Shown: in pieces, positions 21,436 to 26,244 of the stretch | Layout of the letters: each line of letters begins with the position of its first letter | How positions within the stretch are numbered: position 1 is the stretch's first letter | Assembly: GCF_001457615.1 (NCBI RefSeq) | Contig: NZ_LN831024.1 | Coordinates: 4,050,001-4,082,000 of the forward strand | Length of the DNA: 32,000 nt | Source: Pseudomonas aeruginosa | GTDB taxonomy: Bacteria > Pseudomonadota > Gammaproteobacteria > Pseudomonadales > Pseudomonadaceae | Reading direction: 5' to 3' | Notes under the pieces: generated by a model | Databases searched by the model: none | Told to the model about the DNA's origin: nothing | What the model saw: the letters and a program-made list of their open reading frames with translations, nothing else | Made by a program: the position numbers and the translations under genes

Positions 21436-23370
21436 TCAGCGGCCCTTGCCGGCCGGCCCCGGCCGGCTCAGCAGGAGGTCGTCCGGTCCGTCGATCTCGA
21501 TGAAGCGACCGCTTTCCAGCGCCTCCTCCAGCGGCGTGCCGGCGAGCACGTCGGCCTTGCGCAGGGCGCTGGAGAAACGCAGGTCGGCGCTGGCTTCGAC
21601 CTTCGCCAACGGCACCTGGTAGGTCTTGAACGCACCGTAGCGGAAGCCTTCGCTGGGCATCATCCCTTCCTGCCCCAGCAGGTAGGCGGACACTCCCAGT
21701 TCGCCGCTGTCGGCGTCGATCATCGCCACCACCTTCCAGAACTCCAGCGGCACCTGCACGCCCTGGTAGAGCGGATCGTCGTCGCGGAACACCGGGCCGG
21801 TGAACACCGAGATGCGGAAGCCCTCGCTCCTGGCGTTCTGCAGCACGTAGTCCTCCAGCGACAGCCAGCTGCGCTGGTTGAGCTGCGCCACCTGGGGCAC
21901 CGCGTTGGTGTAGACGAAGGTGTCGTCCTCAGCCTGCCGGGCGACGGCATCGCTGTCGCCCCAGCCGGGATCCTCGCGACGCACCATGTGGCCCTTGTCG
22001 AACGAAGCCGGGCCGTAGAAGTCCTTGTGTCCGACCTGCGCGGCCGCCTCGATGCGCGGGTCGAAGCCCCAGGAATCCTTGCGCTTGAGCGAACGCTTGA
22101 GCGCGCCGTCGATATTCACCGCGGTGAGGATCGGCAAGCGCCGACTGGCGCTCATCACCACCGAGAAATGCAGGTAGTCCAGGCGCATGCCCTTGCCCAC
22201 CGGCAGCACCTGGTGGCTCTTGCCCGGCTTGGGCAAGGCCGCCTTCGGCCCGAGGAAGGCCTCGTCGAAACCCTTGCGCTCGGCCAGGTCGGCGACGCTG
22301 CGCTGCTTTTCCTGGAAGCGCGGCACGCCGCGCTTCAGCTCCGCCCCGGCCACCGGCACCCAGGCGCGACGCGCCAGCAGGCTGCGGATCACGCTGGCCT
22401 TCACCGCATAGTTGGTCTTGCGGAACTGGCCGCCGAAGTGCAGGCCGACCACCTCGCCGCCGTCGATCGAAAGCACCGCCGAGCCGGAATTGCCGCCCAG
22501 GGTCGAGCAGTCGTGGGTCAGGTACCAGGCGTCATGGGGCAATCCCACGACTTCGCCGGGAGCGAAGCGCTTGACGTCGTAGATGTTGCCGAAGATATCT
22601 TCCATCGCCCCGGCGTCGTTGCGGCTGTCGCGCGCCGGATAGCCGACCACCGCCACCGCCTGGCGCGGCTCGGCATCCTGGCGCGCGAGGACCAGCGGCG
22701 GCGGCAGCAGGTCGCCCTTCACTACCTGGAGGATCGCCATGTCCGGCGCCTCGGAGACGTCCGGGGCGATCCACAGGACCCGCGCGATCACATGCTCGTC
22801 GCTTTCCGGCTGGCGGTATTCCTCGCGGAAGTCCACGCGGGTGCGCACCTGCTTGCCGGCCTGGTTGAGACGGAAGCGGAACAGGCTGCCCTGGCGCTCG
22901 GCGAACAGGCTGGCGACATGCCGGTTGGTGACGATCAGGTCGTCCTCGATGCGCCAGCCGGTACCGCACCAGTCCATGCTGTCGTGGTCGATCAATTCCA
23001 ACCGACCGACCGAGCGGATCGGCGTGGCCAGCGCGGCGCGATGCTTCTTCAGGCGCTGCTCCAGGCCGGCCAGCGGCGCTTCGTCGAAGATACCGTTCTT
23101 CACCAGCAGCACCGGCCGGCTCTTGAGCAGGACGATCGCCTCGCTGAAGCGCCGCGAGTCGAAGAACGAGGCGTCGGATTCCGGCGACACGCTCTTGCCC
23201 AGGTGGTCGGCGATCTGCTCGCGGCTGGCGTTGTACGCCGGCACGTTGCTCCACTCACCGCGGGCGGCGAGGTGGGCGAGTTCCTCGCGGGTGCCCTTTT
23301 CCTTCAGTACCGAGCAGACCCGCAGTTCTTCCGGCGTGGCCCGCCGGGGGTTGCGCTTGCGCATGGCCAT
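21436..23370 (-). CDS. fusion protein: trypsin-like (S1) serine protease domain plus DNA/RNA non-specific (DRGH, beta-beta-alpha-Me) endonuclease domain
   Basis: 644 aa. Protease triad candidates are H151 (TNRHV), D210 (DMAIL) and S295 (GGNSGSAV). The nuclease motifs FDKGHMV (aa 457-463) and TNAVPQVAQLNQRSWLSLEDY (aa 488-508) closely resemble Serratia NucA DRGH...NITPQ..LNQGAWARLED. No N-terminal signal peptide is visible. Confidence 0.85.
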   Translation of the reverse strand: MAMRKRNPRRATPEELRVCSVLKEKGTREELAHLAARGEWSNVPAYNASREQIADHLGKSVSPESDASFFDSRRFSEAIVLLKSRPVLLVKNGIFDEAPLAGLEQRLKKHRAALATPIRSVGRLELIDHDSMDWCGTGWRIEDDLIVTNRHVASLFAERQGSLFRFRLNQAGKQVRTRVDFREEYRQPESDEHVIARVLWIAPDVSEAPDMAILQVVKGDLLPPPLVLARQDAEPRQAVAVVGYPARDSRNDAGAMEDIFGNIYDVKRFAPGEVVGLPHDAWYLTHDCSTLGGNSGSAVLSIDGGEVVGLHFGGQFRKTNYAVKASVIRSLLARRAWVPVAGAELKRGVPRFQEKQRSVADLAERKGFDEAFLGPKAALPKPGKSHQVLPVGKGMRLDYLHFSVVMSASRRLPILTAVNIDGALKRSLKRKDSWGFDPRIEAAAQVGHKDFYGPASFDKGHMVRREDPGWGDSDAVARQAEDDTFVYTNAVPQVAQLNQRSWLSLEDYVLQNARSEGFRISVFTGPVFRDDDPLYQGVQVPLEFWKVVAMIDADSGELGVSAYLLGQEGMMPSEGFRYGAFKTYQVPLAKVEASADLRFSSALRKADVLAGTPLEEALESGRFIEIDGPDDLLLSRPGPAGKGR

Positions 23371-23455: not shown

Positions 23456-25003
23456 TCAACCGGCGAACAGCCGGTAGGCCGGGTTGTGGGTTTCCTCCCA
23501 GTACGGATAGCCGATGGCTTGCAACGCCGCCTCCAGCTCGCCGCGCTCCTCGTCCGGCACCTGCAATCCGGCCAGCACCCGACCGTCGGCGGCGCCGTGG
23601 TTGCGGTAGTGGAACAGGCTGATGTTCCAGCGCGAGCCGAGCTTGTCGAGGAAGTTCAGCAAGGCCCCGGGGCGTTCGGGAAACTCGAAGCGGAACAGCC
23701 GCTCGCGGCGCACCTCGGTACCGTGGCCGCCGACCATGTGGCGGATGTGCAGCTTGGCCATCTCGTTGTCGGTCAGGTCGAGTACCGGGAAGCCCTGCTC
23801 GCGCAGGCCGGCGAGCAGGTCGGCGCGGCTGTCGATGAGCGGATGGGTCTGCACGCCGACGAACAGGTGGGCCTGGCGGTCGCTGTGGTAGCGGTAGTTG
23901 AACTCGGTGATCTGGCGCCGGCCCAGCGCCGCGCAGAAGGCCTTGAAGCTGCCCGGCCGCTCGGCCACGGTGACGGCGATGATCGCTTCGCGCTGTTCGC
24001 CCAGTTCGGCGCGCTCGGCAACGTGGCGCAGGCGGTCGAAGTTGATGTTGGCACCGGAGTCGATGGCCACCAGGGTCTGCCCCTCGGTGCGTTCGCGGGC
24101 CACGTACTTCTTGATCCCCGCTACGGCCAGGGCGCCGGCCGGCTCGGTGATCGAACGGGTGTCGTCGTAGATGTCCTTGATCGCCGCGCAGATTTCGTCG
24201 CTGCCGACGGTGATCACCTCGTCGACATGGTCCTTGCAGACCTCGAAGTTGCAAGCGCCGATCTGCGCCACCGCCACCCCGTCGGCGAACAGCCCGACCT
24301 GGCCCAGCACCACCCGTTCGCCGGCGGCCAGCGCCGCCTGCAGGCAGTTGGAATCCTCCGGCTCGACGCCGATCACGCGAATATCCGGACGCAGGTGCTT
24401 GACGTAGGCGGCGATCCCGGCGATCAGGCTGCCGCCGCCGACCGGCACGAAGATCGCGTCGAGGCGGCCGCTGTGCTGGCGGAGGATCTCCATCGCCACC
24501 GTGCCCTGTCCGGCGATCACGTCCGGATCGTCGTAGGGTGGGACGAAGGTCATGCCTTCGCGCTCGGCCAGTTGCAGGGCATGGGCCAGCGCATCGGGGA
24601 AGGCGTCGCCGTGCAGCAACGCCTCGCCGCCGCGCGCCAGCACGCCCTTGACCTTGAGCTCGGGAGTGGTGCGCGGCATCACGATCACCGCCCGCACGCC
24701 CAGGCGCTGCGCCGCCAGGGCCAGGCCCTGGGCATGGTTGCCGGCGGAGGCGGTGATCACCCCGCGAGCCTTCTGCTCGTCGCTCAGGCGCGCGACACGG
24801 GTGTAGGCGCCGCGGATCTTGAAGGAGAACACCGGCTGCAGGTCCTCGCGCTTGAGCAGCACCCGGTTGCCCAGGCGCTGGGACAACTGCGGCGCGACCT
24901 GCAAGGGGGTTTCCACGGCGACGTCGTACACCGGCGCGGCCAGGATGCTTTCCACGTAGCCGGCCAGCAGGGGTTTGCTTGCGCTGAGGGTCGAGGCGCT
25001 CAT
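23456..25003 (-). CDS. ilvA2: biosynthetic-type threonine dehydratase (threonine deaminase) with C-terminal regulatory domains
   Basis: In-frame ATG at 25003 of ORF 23456..25078, with GGAGG 7 nt upstream. PLP-lysine motif FSFKIRGAY and GGGGL-type loop PVGGGSL. At 515 aa it includes the two ACT-like regulatory repeats. The symbol is from remembered synteny (PA1326). Confidence 0.9.
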   Translation of the reverse strand: MSASTLSASKPLLAGYVESILAAPVYDVAVETPLQVAPQLSQRLGNRVLLKREDLQPVFSFKIRGAYTRVARLSDEQKARGVITASAGNHAQGLALAAQRLGVRAVIVMPRTTPELKVKGVLARGGEALLHGDAFPDALAHALQLAEREGMTFVPPYDDPDVIAGQGTVAMEILRQHSGRLDAIFVPVGGGSLIAGIAAYVKHLRPDIRVIGVEPEDSNCLQAALAAGERVVLGQVGLFADGVAVAQIGACNFEVCKDHVDEVITVGSDEICAAIKDIYDDTRSITEPAGALAVAGIKKYVARERTEGQTLVAIDSGANINFDRLRHVAERAELGEQREAIIAVTVAERPGSFKAFCAALGRRQITEFNYRYHSDRQAHLFVGVQTHPLIDSRADLLAGLREQGFPVLDLTDNEMAKLHIRHMVGGHGTEVRRERLFRFEFPERPGALLNFLDKLGSRWNISLFHYRNHGAADGRVLAGLQVPDEERGELEAALQAIGYPYWEETHNPAYRLFAG

Positions 25004-25407
25004 CGGCTGGCCTCCGCGCTCGCCGCCACCGAGGCCAGCAGGTCGGTGCCGTAGGAGTTGTCCACCGCGCAGCGCCACTGGCCATCGGCCTCCTGGCGGA
25101 ACACGTAGGTGGCCCGACGTTGCAGGCGTCCGGCCTTCGACTCGATCACCGCCTCGGCCATGACCAGCGCCGTATCTCCCGCCTCGATCACCCGTAGGTC
25201 GTGCTGGCGCACTCGCAGGCTGTGCTCGAAGTGCCGGGCGATGGCGTCGAACGCCTGGCGGATCTGCGCCTTGCCGCAGGCGTTGAGGCCCGGCTTGACC
25301 ACCAGGGTGGCGTCGTCGCAGTAGAAATCCATCAGGGCATCGAACTGCCCGGCATTGATCAGGGCGTCGGCCCGGCCAACGAGGTTCTGGAGGGTCTGGT
25401 GCTGCAT
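25000..25407 (-). CDS. NTF2-like / SnoaL-like (DUF4440-type) small protein
   Basis: 135 aa with GGGAG 6 nt upstream. Its stop overlaps the ilvA2 start (ATGA at 25000-25003). The sequence pattern (FYCDDATLVV...RATYVFRQEADGQWRCAVDNS) is typical of the NTF2-like fold. Confidence 0.8.
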   Translation of the reverse strand: MQHQTLQNLVGRADALINAGQFDALMDFYCDDATLVVKPGLNACGKAQIRQAFDAIARHFEHSLRVRQHDLRVIEAGDTALVMAEAVIESKAGRLQRRATYVFRQEADGQWRCAVDNSYGTDLLASVAASAEASR

Positions 25408-25440
25408 GCTGTTCTCCCGGTTCGGTGGTTTTGGCCCAGG

Positions 25441-25475
25441 AGACAGAACGAAGAACCCGCCTCGAGGGCGGGTTC
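25441..25475 (-). terminator. intrinsic-terminator-like hairpin inside the 5' leader of the NTF2-like/ilvA2 operon (attenuator)
   Basis: Minus-strand RNA reads GAACCCGCC-CUCGA-GGCGGGUUC followed by UUCGUUCUGUCU. The stem is 9 bp and perfect. It ends ~45 nt upstream of the operon start codon. Confidence 0.5.
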
Positions 25476-25489
25476 GGAGTGGACGCTGG

Positions 25490-25555
25490 CTAACCCGCCA
25501 TAGCTGGAATGGCGGTAATAATGCTGCGGCGGGTAAGCAGGGTCGCGAAGGTCAT
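25490..25555 (-). CDS. candidate 21-aa leader peptide MTFATLLTRRSIITAIPAMAG
   Basis: ATG at 25555 to TAG at 25490-25492 on the minus strand. It contains 3 Ile (all AUU) and 4 Thr codons. It overlaps three sequence blocks that can each pair with, or compete for, the terminator arm. No Shine-Dalgarno is visible, and the putative promoter would leave a very short 5' UTR. Confidence 0.4.
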   Translation of the reverse strand: MTFATLLTRRSIITAIPAMAG

Positions 25556-25563
25556 GGGTATCG

Positions 25564-25593
25564 AAACTACGGCGCAGGCCCGTTGGCTGTCAA
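25564..25593 (-). promoter_or_regulatory. sigma-70-like promoter for the leader/ilvA2 operon
   Basis: On the minus strand, TTGACA (25593-25588), an 18-nt spacer, then TAGTTT (25569-25564). Confidence 0.35.
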
Positions 25594-25615
25594 GCGGTCC
25601 GGCCGCGCCGGCAGG

Positions 25616-25645
25616 AAAAAGCCCCTGCCGCGATGGCAGGGGCTT
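25616..25645 (-). terminator. rho-independent terminator of the PA1323/PA1324-like operon
   Basis: Minus-strand RNA reads AAGCCCCUGCC-AUCGC-GGCAGGGGCUU followed by UUUUU. It starts 28 nt after the stop at 25673. Confidence 0.85.
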
Positions 25646-25672
25646 GCCGTTTTGGCCGAACACCGCCGGAGG

Positions 25673-26185
25673 TCAGCGGGTCAGCAGCACCTTCTGCGGC
25701 TGCGAGCCGCTCACGGTGACCAGCTTGGTGACGGTGCCGCCCTCGGTGATGGTCTTGCCATCGCTCTGGGCGCTCCAAGTCAGCTCGCTGGAAATGTAGT
25801 AGGTGCCGTTGGGGATGTGGTCGAAGTCGAAGCGACCGTTCTGGTCGGTGGTCGCCTCGCGCACGTAGGTGGCGCGTCGCGGGTCGAGCACCGGCGGTTG
25901 CACGTCGGGATCGCGCTTGGCGGCATCGAGGTTACCGAACTTCGCGTAGTAGGCCTTCATGTAGCTGGTCGCAGGCTCCAGGGTGACCTTGGTGTTGGTC
26001 CCCTTCTGGATCGCACCCGACGCGCTGGTCAGGTACAGGTCGCCGTTGATCACGCCCTCTCCCACCTGCTGGGTCGCCGCGTATTCATGCTCCGGGAAAT
26101 CCGGCAGGTCGTTGGGATTGGAGGCGCAGGCCGCCAGGGCCGCGGTCATGGCCAGGAGGCCGAGGTTCTTCTTGATCGAAAGCAT
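25673..26185 (-). CDS. lipoprotein with carboxypeptidase-regulatory-like / prealbumin-like fold (PA1324-like)
   Basis: The ORF track start at 26191 is a TTG. ATG at 26185 has AAGGAA 6 nt upstream and gives 170 aa. Lipobox LAACA. The C-terminal part (TDQNGRFDFDHIPNGTYYI) is typical of CarboxypepD_reg-like beta-sandwich domains. Confidence 0.85.
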   Translation of the reverse strand: MLSIKKNLGLLAMTAALAACASNPNDLPDFPEHEYAATQQVGEGVINGDLYLTSASGAIQKGTNTKVTLEPATSYMKAYYAKFGNLDAAKRDPDVQPPVLDPRRATYVREATTDQNGRFDFDHIPNGTYYISSELTWSAQSDGKTITEGGTVTKLVTVSGSQPQKVLLTR

Positions 26186-26244
26186 GGGCAATTCCTTTTT
26201 TCAAGCGAAGGTAACGAGTCCGTTGTGCGGCACCGACCGCGTGC

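Follow-up and report, generated by a model that had tools for sequence, protein, structure and literature searches.

Pseudomonas RNA P9 as the probable product of a leaderless, isoleucine-sensing attenuator in front of yybH-ilvA2

P9 (Rfam RF00624) is a small RNA (sRNA) of Pseudomonas aeruginosa that was predicted with sRNAPredict2 between genes of 510 and 405 nucleotides (nt) and seen on Northern blots of strain PAO1 as an RNA of ~130 nt in exponential and stationary LB cultures, with no function assigned (Livny et al. 2006, PMC1524904); it has since been tabulated as a 3'-end feature in 3pMap 3'-end mapping data and listed among the sRNAs in several transcriptome papers. Rfam and these papers treat it as a stand-alone sRNA gene without an assigned function, under a name that implies Pseudomonas only. 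Here we analysed a 32,000-nt stretch of P. aeruginosa DNA (positions 4,050,001 to 4,082,000 of NZ_LN831024.1; hereafter the window, whose own numbering is used throughout), in which an original prediction, made from the sequence alone, had placed a leader-peptide attenuator responsive to isoleucine and threonine on the minus strand in front of yybH and ilvA2. Though considered possibly undescribed, the predicted element proved to be RF00624 itself, at the same position between PA1324 and PA1325 and with the same ~130-nt terminated transcript. We propose, at a probability of roughly 0.8, that it is a trp-type ribosome-mediated attenuator that senses the supply of isoleucyl-tRNA (Ile-tRNA) and controls yybH-ilvA2, with P9 as its prematurely terminated product. 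The RNA is already known and the regulatory principle is classical; the attenuator function for P9 is a new proposal.

The P9 leader and its transcription start

The features of the leader are given below; all elements of the original prediction were present where it had placed them when the minus strand was re-read.

25588..25593 (-): -35 hexamer TTGACA of the leader promoter, read in the sequence
25564..25569 (-): -10 hexamer TAGTTT, separated from the -35 hexamer by an 18-nt spacer and ending 8 nt before the leader ATG
25555 (-): transcription start site (TSS), the A of the leader ATG, from a PA14 TSS mapped onto the window
25490..25555 (-): leader open reading frame (ORF) of 21 codons plus UAG, MTFATLLTRRSIITAIPAMAG, read in the sequence, with a conserved frame
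25528..25534 (-): block A, ACCCGCC, which pairs with C in the minimum free energy (MFE) fold of the free RNA
25517..25522 (-): putative regulatory codons AUU AUU (Ile12, Ile13), the conserved Ile pair
25509..25515 (-): block B, CCGCCAU, 5' arm of the putative anti-antiterminator hairpin, starting 1 nt after the Ile pair
25492..25501 (-): block C, AUGGCGGGUU, which overlaps the last codons and the UAG and can pair with B or D
25467..25475 (-): block D, GAACCCGCC, 5' arm of the terminator or 3' arm of the putative antiterminator
25441..25461 (-): block E, GGCGGGUUC (E proper 25453-25461), with the U-rich tail UUCGUUCUGUCU; 3' arm of the terminator and 3' end of P9
25452..25525 (-): match to Rfam RF00624 (Pseudomonas sRNA P9), covariance model, full length (1-74 of 74)
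25409..25446 (-): hairpin between an anti-Shine-Dalgarno (anti-SD) segment GUCUCCUGG and the SD region CCGGGAGA of the first cargo gene, seen in the MFE fold

The RF00624 match (89.8 bits against a gathering score of 43, E = 2.3e-18) was the sole Rfam match above threshold in the whole window, and the flanks agree with Table 1 of Livny et al. 2006 (510-nt and 405-nt class genes, at distances of 93 and 44 nt). Within 25300-25750, 17 Rfam matches were obtained at E <= 10, among them none to the enterobacterial leader families (Thr, Leu, His, Trp) and none to riboswitch or T-box models, so that the comparison with Rfam leader families proposed along with the original prediction led to P9 and not to an enterobacterial leader. 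The P9 consensus begins AuuAUUAUUACC, that is, at the Ile codons, and therefore omits the 5' third of the ORF; the TSS-located start codon and the SD hairpin are likewise outside the model. Neither a leader peptide nor attenuation is mentioned by Livny et al. 2006 (PMC1524904), and P9 or ilvA2 as an attenuator was not found there, in Naville & Gautheret 2010, in Wurtzel 2012 or in the 3pMap paper. Full-text literature searches, which did not cover Vitreschak et al. 2004 (FEMS Microbiol Lett) or RegPrecise, returned no description of a P9 or ilvA2 attenuator and, in the literature searched, no statement that the family reaches well beyond Pseudomonas.

Two sets of related loci were compared. 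Set 1 comprises 80 loci from GTDB species genomes, fetched by homology to the SnoaL (YybH-like) protein alone; since these were chosen without regard to leader sequence, their leader statistics are unbiased, and they yielded 53 non-redundant leaders for ORF counts and 42 aligned leaders for structure and residues. Set 2 comprises at least 120 metagenome loci that match a degenerate pattern built on the Ile codons and the core bases of blocks B to E; this pattern places no condition on ORF start, promoter geometry or downstream genes, and 112 loci with enough downstream DNA, among the matches listed, were evaluable.

The mapped start of transcription coincides with the first base of the leader ORF, rather than lying downstream of it. 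In three of four conditions, Doetsch et al. 2012 (PA14 TSS table) list a minus-strand start at 4198118, which lies within P9 and has yybH (PA14_47110) 148 nt downstream; since 25407 + 148 = 25555, this start falls on the A of the leader ATG, and a cross-check from the coordinates of another paper (PA14_47120 end 4198236 = window 25673) places it again at 25555. The predicted promoter pair TTGACA-18-TAGTTT drew no call at the leader from a sigma-70 scan (4-of-6 rule), because TAGTTT fits TATAAT at just 3/6 positions, yet is validated by the published start. Among 164 non-redundant homologous upstream regions, 125 carry TTG at -38..-35, counted from the leader ATG, and 106 have a TANNNT box whose 3' end is 6-8 nt from the ATG, with the box almost absent from other positions; SD-like motifs were seen in just two, and the base at -1 is C in 81% of homologues. 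Given the -10 box 6-8 nt before the ATG, the lack of an SD sequence and the PA14 TSS on the ATG, the leader peptide mRNA is leaderless, in a geometry that is conserved and backed by a published start. The missing SD sequence and near-leaderless mRNA, which had been entered as a caveat, are thus a conserved, TSS-supported feature. Leaderless mRNAs are rare in P. aeruginosa, with only 43 reported in a transcriptome study of PA14.

Isoleucine codons and competing pairings

An ORF of 16-25 codons is present in every one of the ~175 related loci. All 53 non-redundant leaders have an in-frame ATG 15-42 nt before the Ile pair (the other two frames contain one in 16 and 4 leaders), at a distance of 10 codons in 38 leaders and 11 codons in eight. 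The N-terminal residues of the peptide vary freely among the 42 aligned leaders, and the peptides of ~110 further loci were also compared. Judged from these alignments, the leader ORF is kept in frame and length, not in peptide sequence.

As predicted, the P. aeruginosa ORF holds three ATT (Ile) and four Thr codons. The two core codons encode Ile in 37/42 and 42/42 leaders and are ATT in 47/53 and 52/53, with ATC twice, which makes AUU the codon in 99 of 101 Ile positions. The downstream coding sequences at the same loci use ATC 329 times, ATT 61 times and ATA 20 times (~15% ATT), and the five genes neighbouring the P. aeruginosa leader use ATC 74 times and ATT three times (4% ATT), in keeping with the original description of AUU as non-preferred. 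A stop codon occurs at two places only, in block C (34/42 leaders) or in the B:C loop (8/42), so a terminating ribosome would cover C either way. The leader peptides of Alphaproteobacteria are rich in branched-chain residues (SLIIIAV, LIIL, VVVIL). The response to both isoleucine and threonine that had been predicted is narrowed by this comparison: the invariant AUU pair and the IlvA cargo described below point to isoleucine, but sensing of threonine was rejected, as the residue after Ile-Ile varies (T19, I7, L5, S5, R3, P2 and A1 among 42 leaders), and the ACC codons are explained by their place in the 5' arm of helix B:C.

The competing pairings originally laid out among blocks A to E recur in related leaders for B:C, C:D and D:E but not for A, which occurs in just 4/147 non-redundant leaders; block A was accordingly rejected as part of the conserved switch and is a P. 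aeruginosa-specific extra partner for C. Helix B:C, the first hairpin of the Rfam P9 consensus, is 92.9% paired across the 42 leaders, with changes on both sides at three pairs (A-U 19/G-U 11/G-C 9; A-U 29/G-C 7/U-A 1; U-A 28/U-G 3/A-U 1), and the orthologue alignment proposed as a check thereby bears out the ORF, the Ile pair and blocks B to E, with covariation in B:C. The GGYGGG core of C is invariant (42/42 leaders); the C-side columns shared with C:D are invariant and their B-side partners vary, as expected if C has two partners. The cores of D (ACCCG) and E (CGGGU) are likewise invariant in the 42 leaders, across four bacterial classes, unlike those of ordinary terminators, and C:D complementarity holds in 93% of alignment cells. 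A terminator scan calls D:E in the window as a stem of 9 base pairs (bp) with seven G-C pairs and a 5-nt loop.

Folding of the P. aeruginosa leader agrees with the proposed switch. The 158-nt leader has a folding energy of -60.6 kcal/mol, compared with -43.8 +/- 3.5 kcal/mol for dinucleotide shuffles (z = -4.8; 0/200 as stable); this score, together with the recurrence of the same layout in 57/80 loci fetched by protein homology, places the layout far beyond chance. When nt 1-47 or 1-50 were blocked, which mimics a ribosome with AUU in the A site, and the RNA was cut before E, an 8-bp C:D helix formed (-14.1 kcal/mol); blocking through the stop-codon footprint gave D:E (-17.9 kcal/mol), and in the free leader RNA C is paired with A or B and D:E is also present. 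Such constrained folds, which had been suggested as a check on the original prediction, thus reproduce the proposed switch.

The last hairpin of the leader, GUCUCC..GGAGAC, recurs across taxa in most related loci, before whichever cargo gene comes first, and is 71% paired with weak covariation (manual pair count); RNAalifold returned no consensus for it, and a shuffle control on SD pairing (90% versus 76%) was uninformative because the U-tract can pair with the SD too. An arrangement in which free E would pair with the anti-SD and open the ribosome-binding site was considered and rejected, as the SD is still paired in 109/148 folds with forced C:D, compared with 124 in the terminated state. 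Two variations of the layout were also observed. In the P. nitroreducens group (L002-L019), an extra GCCCGCC ~10-20 nt past the terminator U-tract can pair with E and so form one more alternative hairpin, which P. aeruginosa lacks. Divergent leaders occur in Massilia (L048, L075) and Salinicola (L076), where GTCCGC replaces the U-tract after the stem or the Ile pair is altered; these variants may be decaying or differently wired.

What has been observed here or in published data, namely the elements and their conservation, the covarying B:C helix, the mapped start, the short RNA and the association with ilvA, suggests a mechanism in which B, C, D and E would act as segments 1 to 4 and AUU AUU as the regulatory codons. 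Transcription begins at the A of the leader AUG, and a ribosome would load on this leaderless 5' AUG. With plentiful Ile-tRNA, the ribosome would pass AUU AUU to the UAG inside C and cover C, leaving D to pair with E; RNA polymerase would then stop in the U-rich tract and release an RNA of ~111 nt (~130 nt on the Northern). Because LB is a rich medium, the attenuator would be expected to terminate under the published conditions, which fits the short P9 RNA. With scarce Ile-tRNA, the ribosome would stall with AUU in the A site, covering B and leaving C free to pair at once with newly made D; E would then lack a partner, and the polymerase would enter yybH and ilvA2. Read-through would yield more threonine deaminase, the committed step towards isoleucine. 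Should no ribosome load, B:C (in P. aeruginosa also A:C) would form and termination would be the default.

Genes under the leader and its distribution

The same leader layout lies directly upstream of the SnoaL gene in the 57 positive loci of set 1, which include Pseudomonas, Methylobacter and Methylomonas, and further Advenella, Sulfuriferula, Propionivibrio, Azonexus, Pseudoduganella, Rhizobium, Ensifer, Bradyrhizobium, Pleomorphomonas, Cohaesibacter and Desulfuromonadaceae. Of the set-1 loci tested, 16/20 score 45-82 bits with the Rfam P9 model, which exceeds its threshold in Alpha-, Beta- and Gammaproteobacteria and Desulfuromonadaceae. In two alphaproteobacterial metagenome-assembled genomes (L037:3512-4918 and L042:3518-4924), a LeuC-like gene of the aconitase family follows ~116 nt after the leader-controlled SnoaL gene and is a second link to branched-chain amino-acid synthesis.

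In set 1, ilvA stands behind the SnoaL gene at only 7/80 loci, and these counts (57/80 with a leader, seven with ilvA) had made the SnoaL gene a candidate for the leader's proper partner; that candidate was rejected, as IlvA is the commonest cargo in the leader-anchored scan. Among the matches listed in set 2, almost every locus has both ORF and -10 box, and IlvA lies behind the leader in 75/112 (two thirds). At these listed loci the cargo comprises IlvA homologues (72), AAA_33 P-loop kinases (20), SnoaL proteins (11), SnoaL with kinase (six) and SnoaL with IlvA, the P. aeruginosa arrangement (three); three more have cargo of no such family, including one other P-loop kinase and one apparent integrase. 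Across the ~175 loci of both sets, the leader is always directly upstream, on the same strand, of one of these three gene families, 40-60 nt from the start codon. The leader-anchored counts support a sensor that controls entry into isoleucine synthesis. Two loci depart from this picture: at L166, the ORF right after the leader resembles, by eye from its N-terminal sequence, a phage-type integrase, and at L147 the leader is followed by an unrelated membrane protein of ~460 amino acids; a rearrangement or island insertion has probably parted leader and cargo there.

The IlvA cargo falls into a long class of ~520-540 amino acids (P. putida group, Metapseudomonas, P. japonica) and a short class of ~337-371 amino acids (P. 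fluorescens group, Cupriavidus, Halopseudomonas) that ends after the catalytic PALP domain (TIGR01124 positions 1-320 of 499) and is without both regulatory domains. Short enzymes were found directly behind the leader at L104:11306-12319 (-), L128, L146, L086, L113 and ~25 other metagenome loci; in these, attenuation may stand in place of allosteric feedback. The AAA_33 P-loop kinase, of ~165 amino acids and matched by no NCBIfam model, recurs as cargo alone, after the SnoaL gene or fused to SnoaL, and kinase-linked leaders occur in Serratia, P. protegens and Cupriavidus. Examples are L002:3378-3869, L030:3400-3900 and L061:3401-3916, with kinase-only cargo at L085, L087 and L124 and SnoaL-kinase fusions at L041, L050 and L052:3001-3876. 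We know of no link between the YybH-like or AAA_33 cargo and isoleucine.

The genes and neighbouring elements of the P. aeruginosa locus are as follows.

25000..25407 (-): yybH, first cargo gene, YybH/SnoaL-like/DUF4440 (NTF2-like), orthologue of PA1325
23456..25003 (-): ilvA2, second cargo gene, biosynthetic threonine ammonia-lyase with two C-terminal regulatory domains
25673-26191 (-): PA1324-like gene, upstream neighbour of the leader's intergenic region
25616..25643 (-): intrinsic terminator of the PA1324-like gene, GCCCCUGCC-loop-GGCAGGGGC followed by UUUUU

The yybH product matches Pfam DUF4440, SnoaL_3 and SnoaL_2 and TIGR02246 and is a homologue of PDB 2GXF YybH; that of ilvA2 matches Pfam PALP and Thr_dehydrat_C, and TIGR01124 at 799 bits. 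The two genes overlap in ATGA at 25000-25003 (-), where the ilvA2 start codon overlaps the yybH stop, with GGAGG 8 nt upstream, which suggests translational coupling. Upstream, the terminator at 25616..25643 isolates the leader as a separate transcription unit; the surrounding region (25606-25681, minus strand) gives a sub-threshold Rfam suhB/mmgR match (22.4 bits versus a threshold of 41), most likely a generic terminator likeness. Downstream, 21436-23370 (-) encodes a 644-residue orthologue of PA1327 in which a trypsin-like peptidase domain is fused to a DNA/RNA non-specific endonuclease domain; because PA1327 has its own TSS in PA14, 30 nt upstream, this gene is probably outside the attenuated operon.

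Alternative explanations and known systems

Published expression data bear on what the leader senses. In a fusA1 P443L mutant, whose elongation factor G (EF-G) is slow, PA1325 and PA1326 are the two most up-regulated transcripts, and the authors of that study discuss leader-peptide attenuation for armZ without connecting it to PA1325-PA1326; IlvA2 and YybH rise 3.5-fold and 3.2-fold after treatment with a bactericidal peptide, and IlvA2 is listed as tobramycin-induced. The leader-peptide attenuator might therefore answer general translation stress (drugs or slow elongation), as does the armZ (PA5471) leader that controls MexXY, and it would be consistent with such a role that some of the cargo are uncharacterised AAA_33 P-loop kinases. 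The AAA_33 P-loop kinase fold also includes drug kinases. However, threonine dehydratase, which opens the route to isoleucine, makes up two thirds of the cargo, Ile-Ile are the sole invariant residues of the peptide, and the alphaproteobacterial versions are enriched in Ile, Val and Leu; because any ribosome-dependent attenuator answers a global slowing of elongation, the fusA1 and tobramycin data do not discriminate, and we regard a general stress sensor as unlikely.

Still less likely is a mainly trans-acting P9 that pairs with distant mRNAs and lies in front of ilvA2 by accident of position. Such a role is implied by the Rfam type "Gene" and by the original description, would suit a discrete ~130-nt RNA present in both growth phases and tabulated with sRNAs in transcriptome papers, and has a dual-role precedent in the S. 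meliloti trp attenuator RNA rnTrpL, which acts in trans too. Against it stand the ~175 loci, in which the element is always on the same strand, directly before three gene families and 40-60 nt from their start codons, the conserved ORF that begins at the TSS, and the mutually exclusive intramolecular pairings that explain the most conserved nucleotides; P9 may have a trans role on top of attenuation. The very high nucleotide conservation (AUUAUU, GGYGGGUUAG, AACCCGCC), with AUU third positions kept beyond what the amino acid needs, could also be read as the mark of a riboswitch or of a protein- or tRNA-binding leader in which the ORF is a sequence by-product. We consider this the least probable reading by a clear distance from even odds, at a few chances in a hundred: the leader has no aptamer-sized structure, just two simple hairpins and the SD hairpin, its 5' third varies in sequence but keeps its frame and its length, with the ATG at the TSS, its stop codons fall at two positions only, and no Rfam riboswitch or T-box matched at E <= 10.

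Several points also weigh against the isoleucine-sensing attenuator that we favour. That the ORF is translated, that ribosomes stall at AUU, that C:D and D:E compete kinetically and that the switch responds to isoleucine are steps that we infer, and any ribosome-dependent attenuator, not just one for isoleucine, would fit the induction seen in the fusA1 mutant and with tobramycin. Because ATTATT and the B, C, D and E cores are in the search pattern of set 2, their presence there is not independent conservation. As D never varies, compensatory double changes are absent from C:D, and the proposed antiterminator is accordingly argued from conserved complementarity and folding, not from covariation. 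At equilibrium D:E (-17.9 kcal/mol) is more stable than C:D (-14.1 kcal/mol), so antitermination would have to be kinetic, as in the trp leader. The preference for AUU may reflect a constraint at the RNA level instead of one on decoding. Lastly, the ~110-nt terminated transcript foreseen in the original prediction has a counterpart in the short RNA and in the P9 3'-end feature of 3pMap, but the Northern band, at ~130 nt, somewhat exceeds the ~111 nt expected between TSS and U-tract.

If the proposed attenuator is correct, it would give a function to an orphan sRNA that has been in Rfam and Pseudomonas annotation since 2006, and would mean that the P9 family has been filed wrongly, as a gene when it is a cis-regulatory leader, and misnamed, as it is not confined to Pseudomonas. 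It would account for PA1325-PA1326 heading the list of induced genes under slow translation elongation, add a clear proteobacterial case of a leaderless leader peptide, and suggest how Pseudomonas runs two threonine deaminases, with IlvA1 under allosteric control and IlvA2 under attenuation. It also offers a testable handle on two widespread uncharacterised proteins found under one leader type. A wider reading, which we hold as tentative and somewhat doubtful, is that P9 marks a conserved isoleucine-starvation regulon across Proteobacteria, governed by a leaderless AUU-specific attenuator, in which YybH/NTF2-like proteins and AAA_33 kinases act in isoleucine/2-ketobutyrate homeostasis, a role suggested by guilt by association with the leader. 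Were this so, attenuation would replace feedback inhibition for backup threonine deaminases without allosteric domains (P. fluorescens group, Cupriavidus, Halopseudomonas), and the wobble-decoded AUU would serve as a tuning device, so that falling Ile-tRNA would affect the sensor more readily than the bulk proteome.

Among known systems, the armZ (PA5471) leader peptide PA5471.1 belongs to the same organism, likewise consists of a short leader ORF and a terminator, with de-repression upon impaired translation, but it answers ribosome-targeting drugs and controls an efflux-pump anti-repressor, with no link to amino-acid biosynthesis; no sequence similarity between the P9 and PA5471.1 leaders was detected. 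The leaderless start is shared with S. meliloti trpL/rnTrpL, whose transcript likewise begins with the leader-peptide AUG (PMC7298713). In Deinococcus deserti, 14 leaderless leader peptides have been predicted, likewise on AUG-first transcripts. Leaderless leader-peptide attenuators are reportedly also formed by mycobacterial poly-Cys short ORFs and found in Corynebacterium glutamicum. These leaderless attenuators differ from P9 in the amino acids sensed (Trp, Cys and others), have unrelated sequences and belong mostly to other phyla. In its logic, the proposed P9 attenuator reveals no new regulatory principle and follows the classical attenuator model, which is said to date to Yanofsky in 1981. 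It would share the four-segment logic of the enterobacterial trp, thr, ilvGMEDA, ilvBN, leu and his leaders (B = 1, C = 2, D = 3, E = 4), with regulatory codons just before segment 1, a stop codon that lets the terminating ribosome mask segment 2, a terminator thermodynamically stronger than the antiterminator and cargo in the pathway of the sensed amino acid. In contrast to those leaders, which it does not match in sequence, P9 has two or three regulatory codons, for Ile alone in most taxa, is leaderless without an SD sequence, stands before a stand-alone ilvA paralogue instead of an ilv operon, and carries an extra SD-sequestering hairpin.

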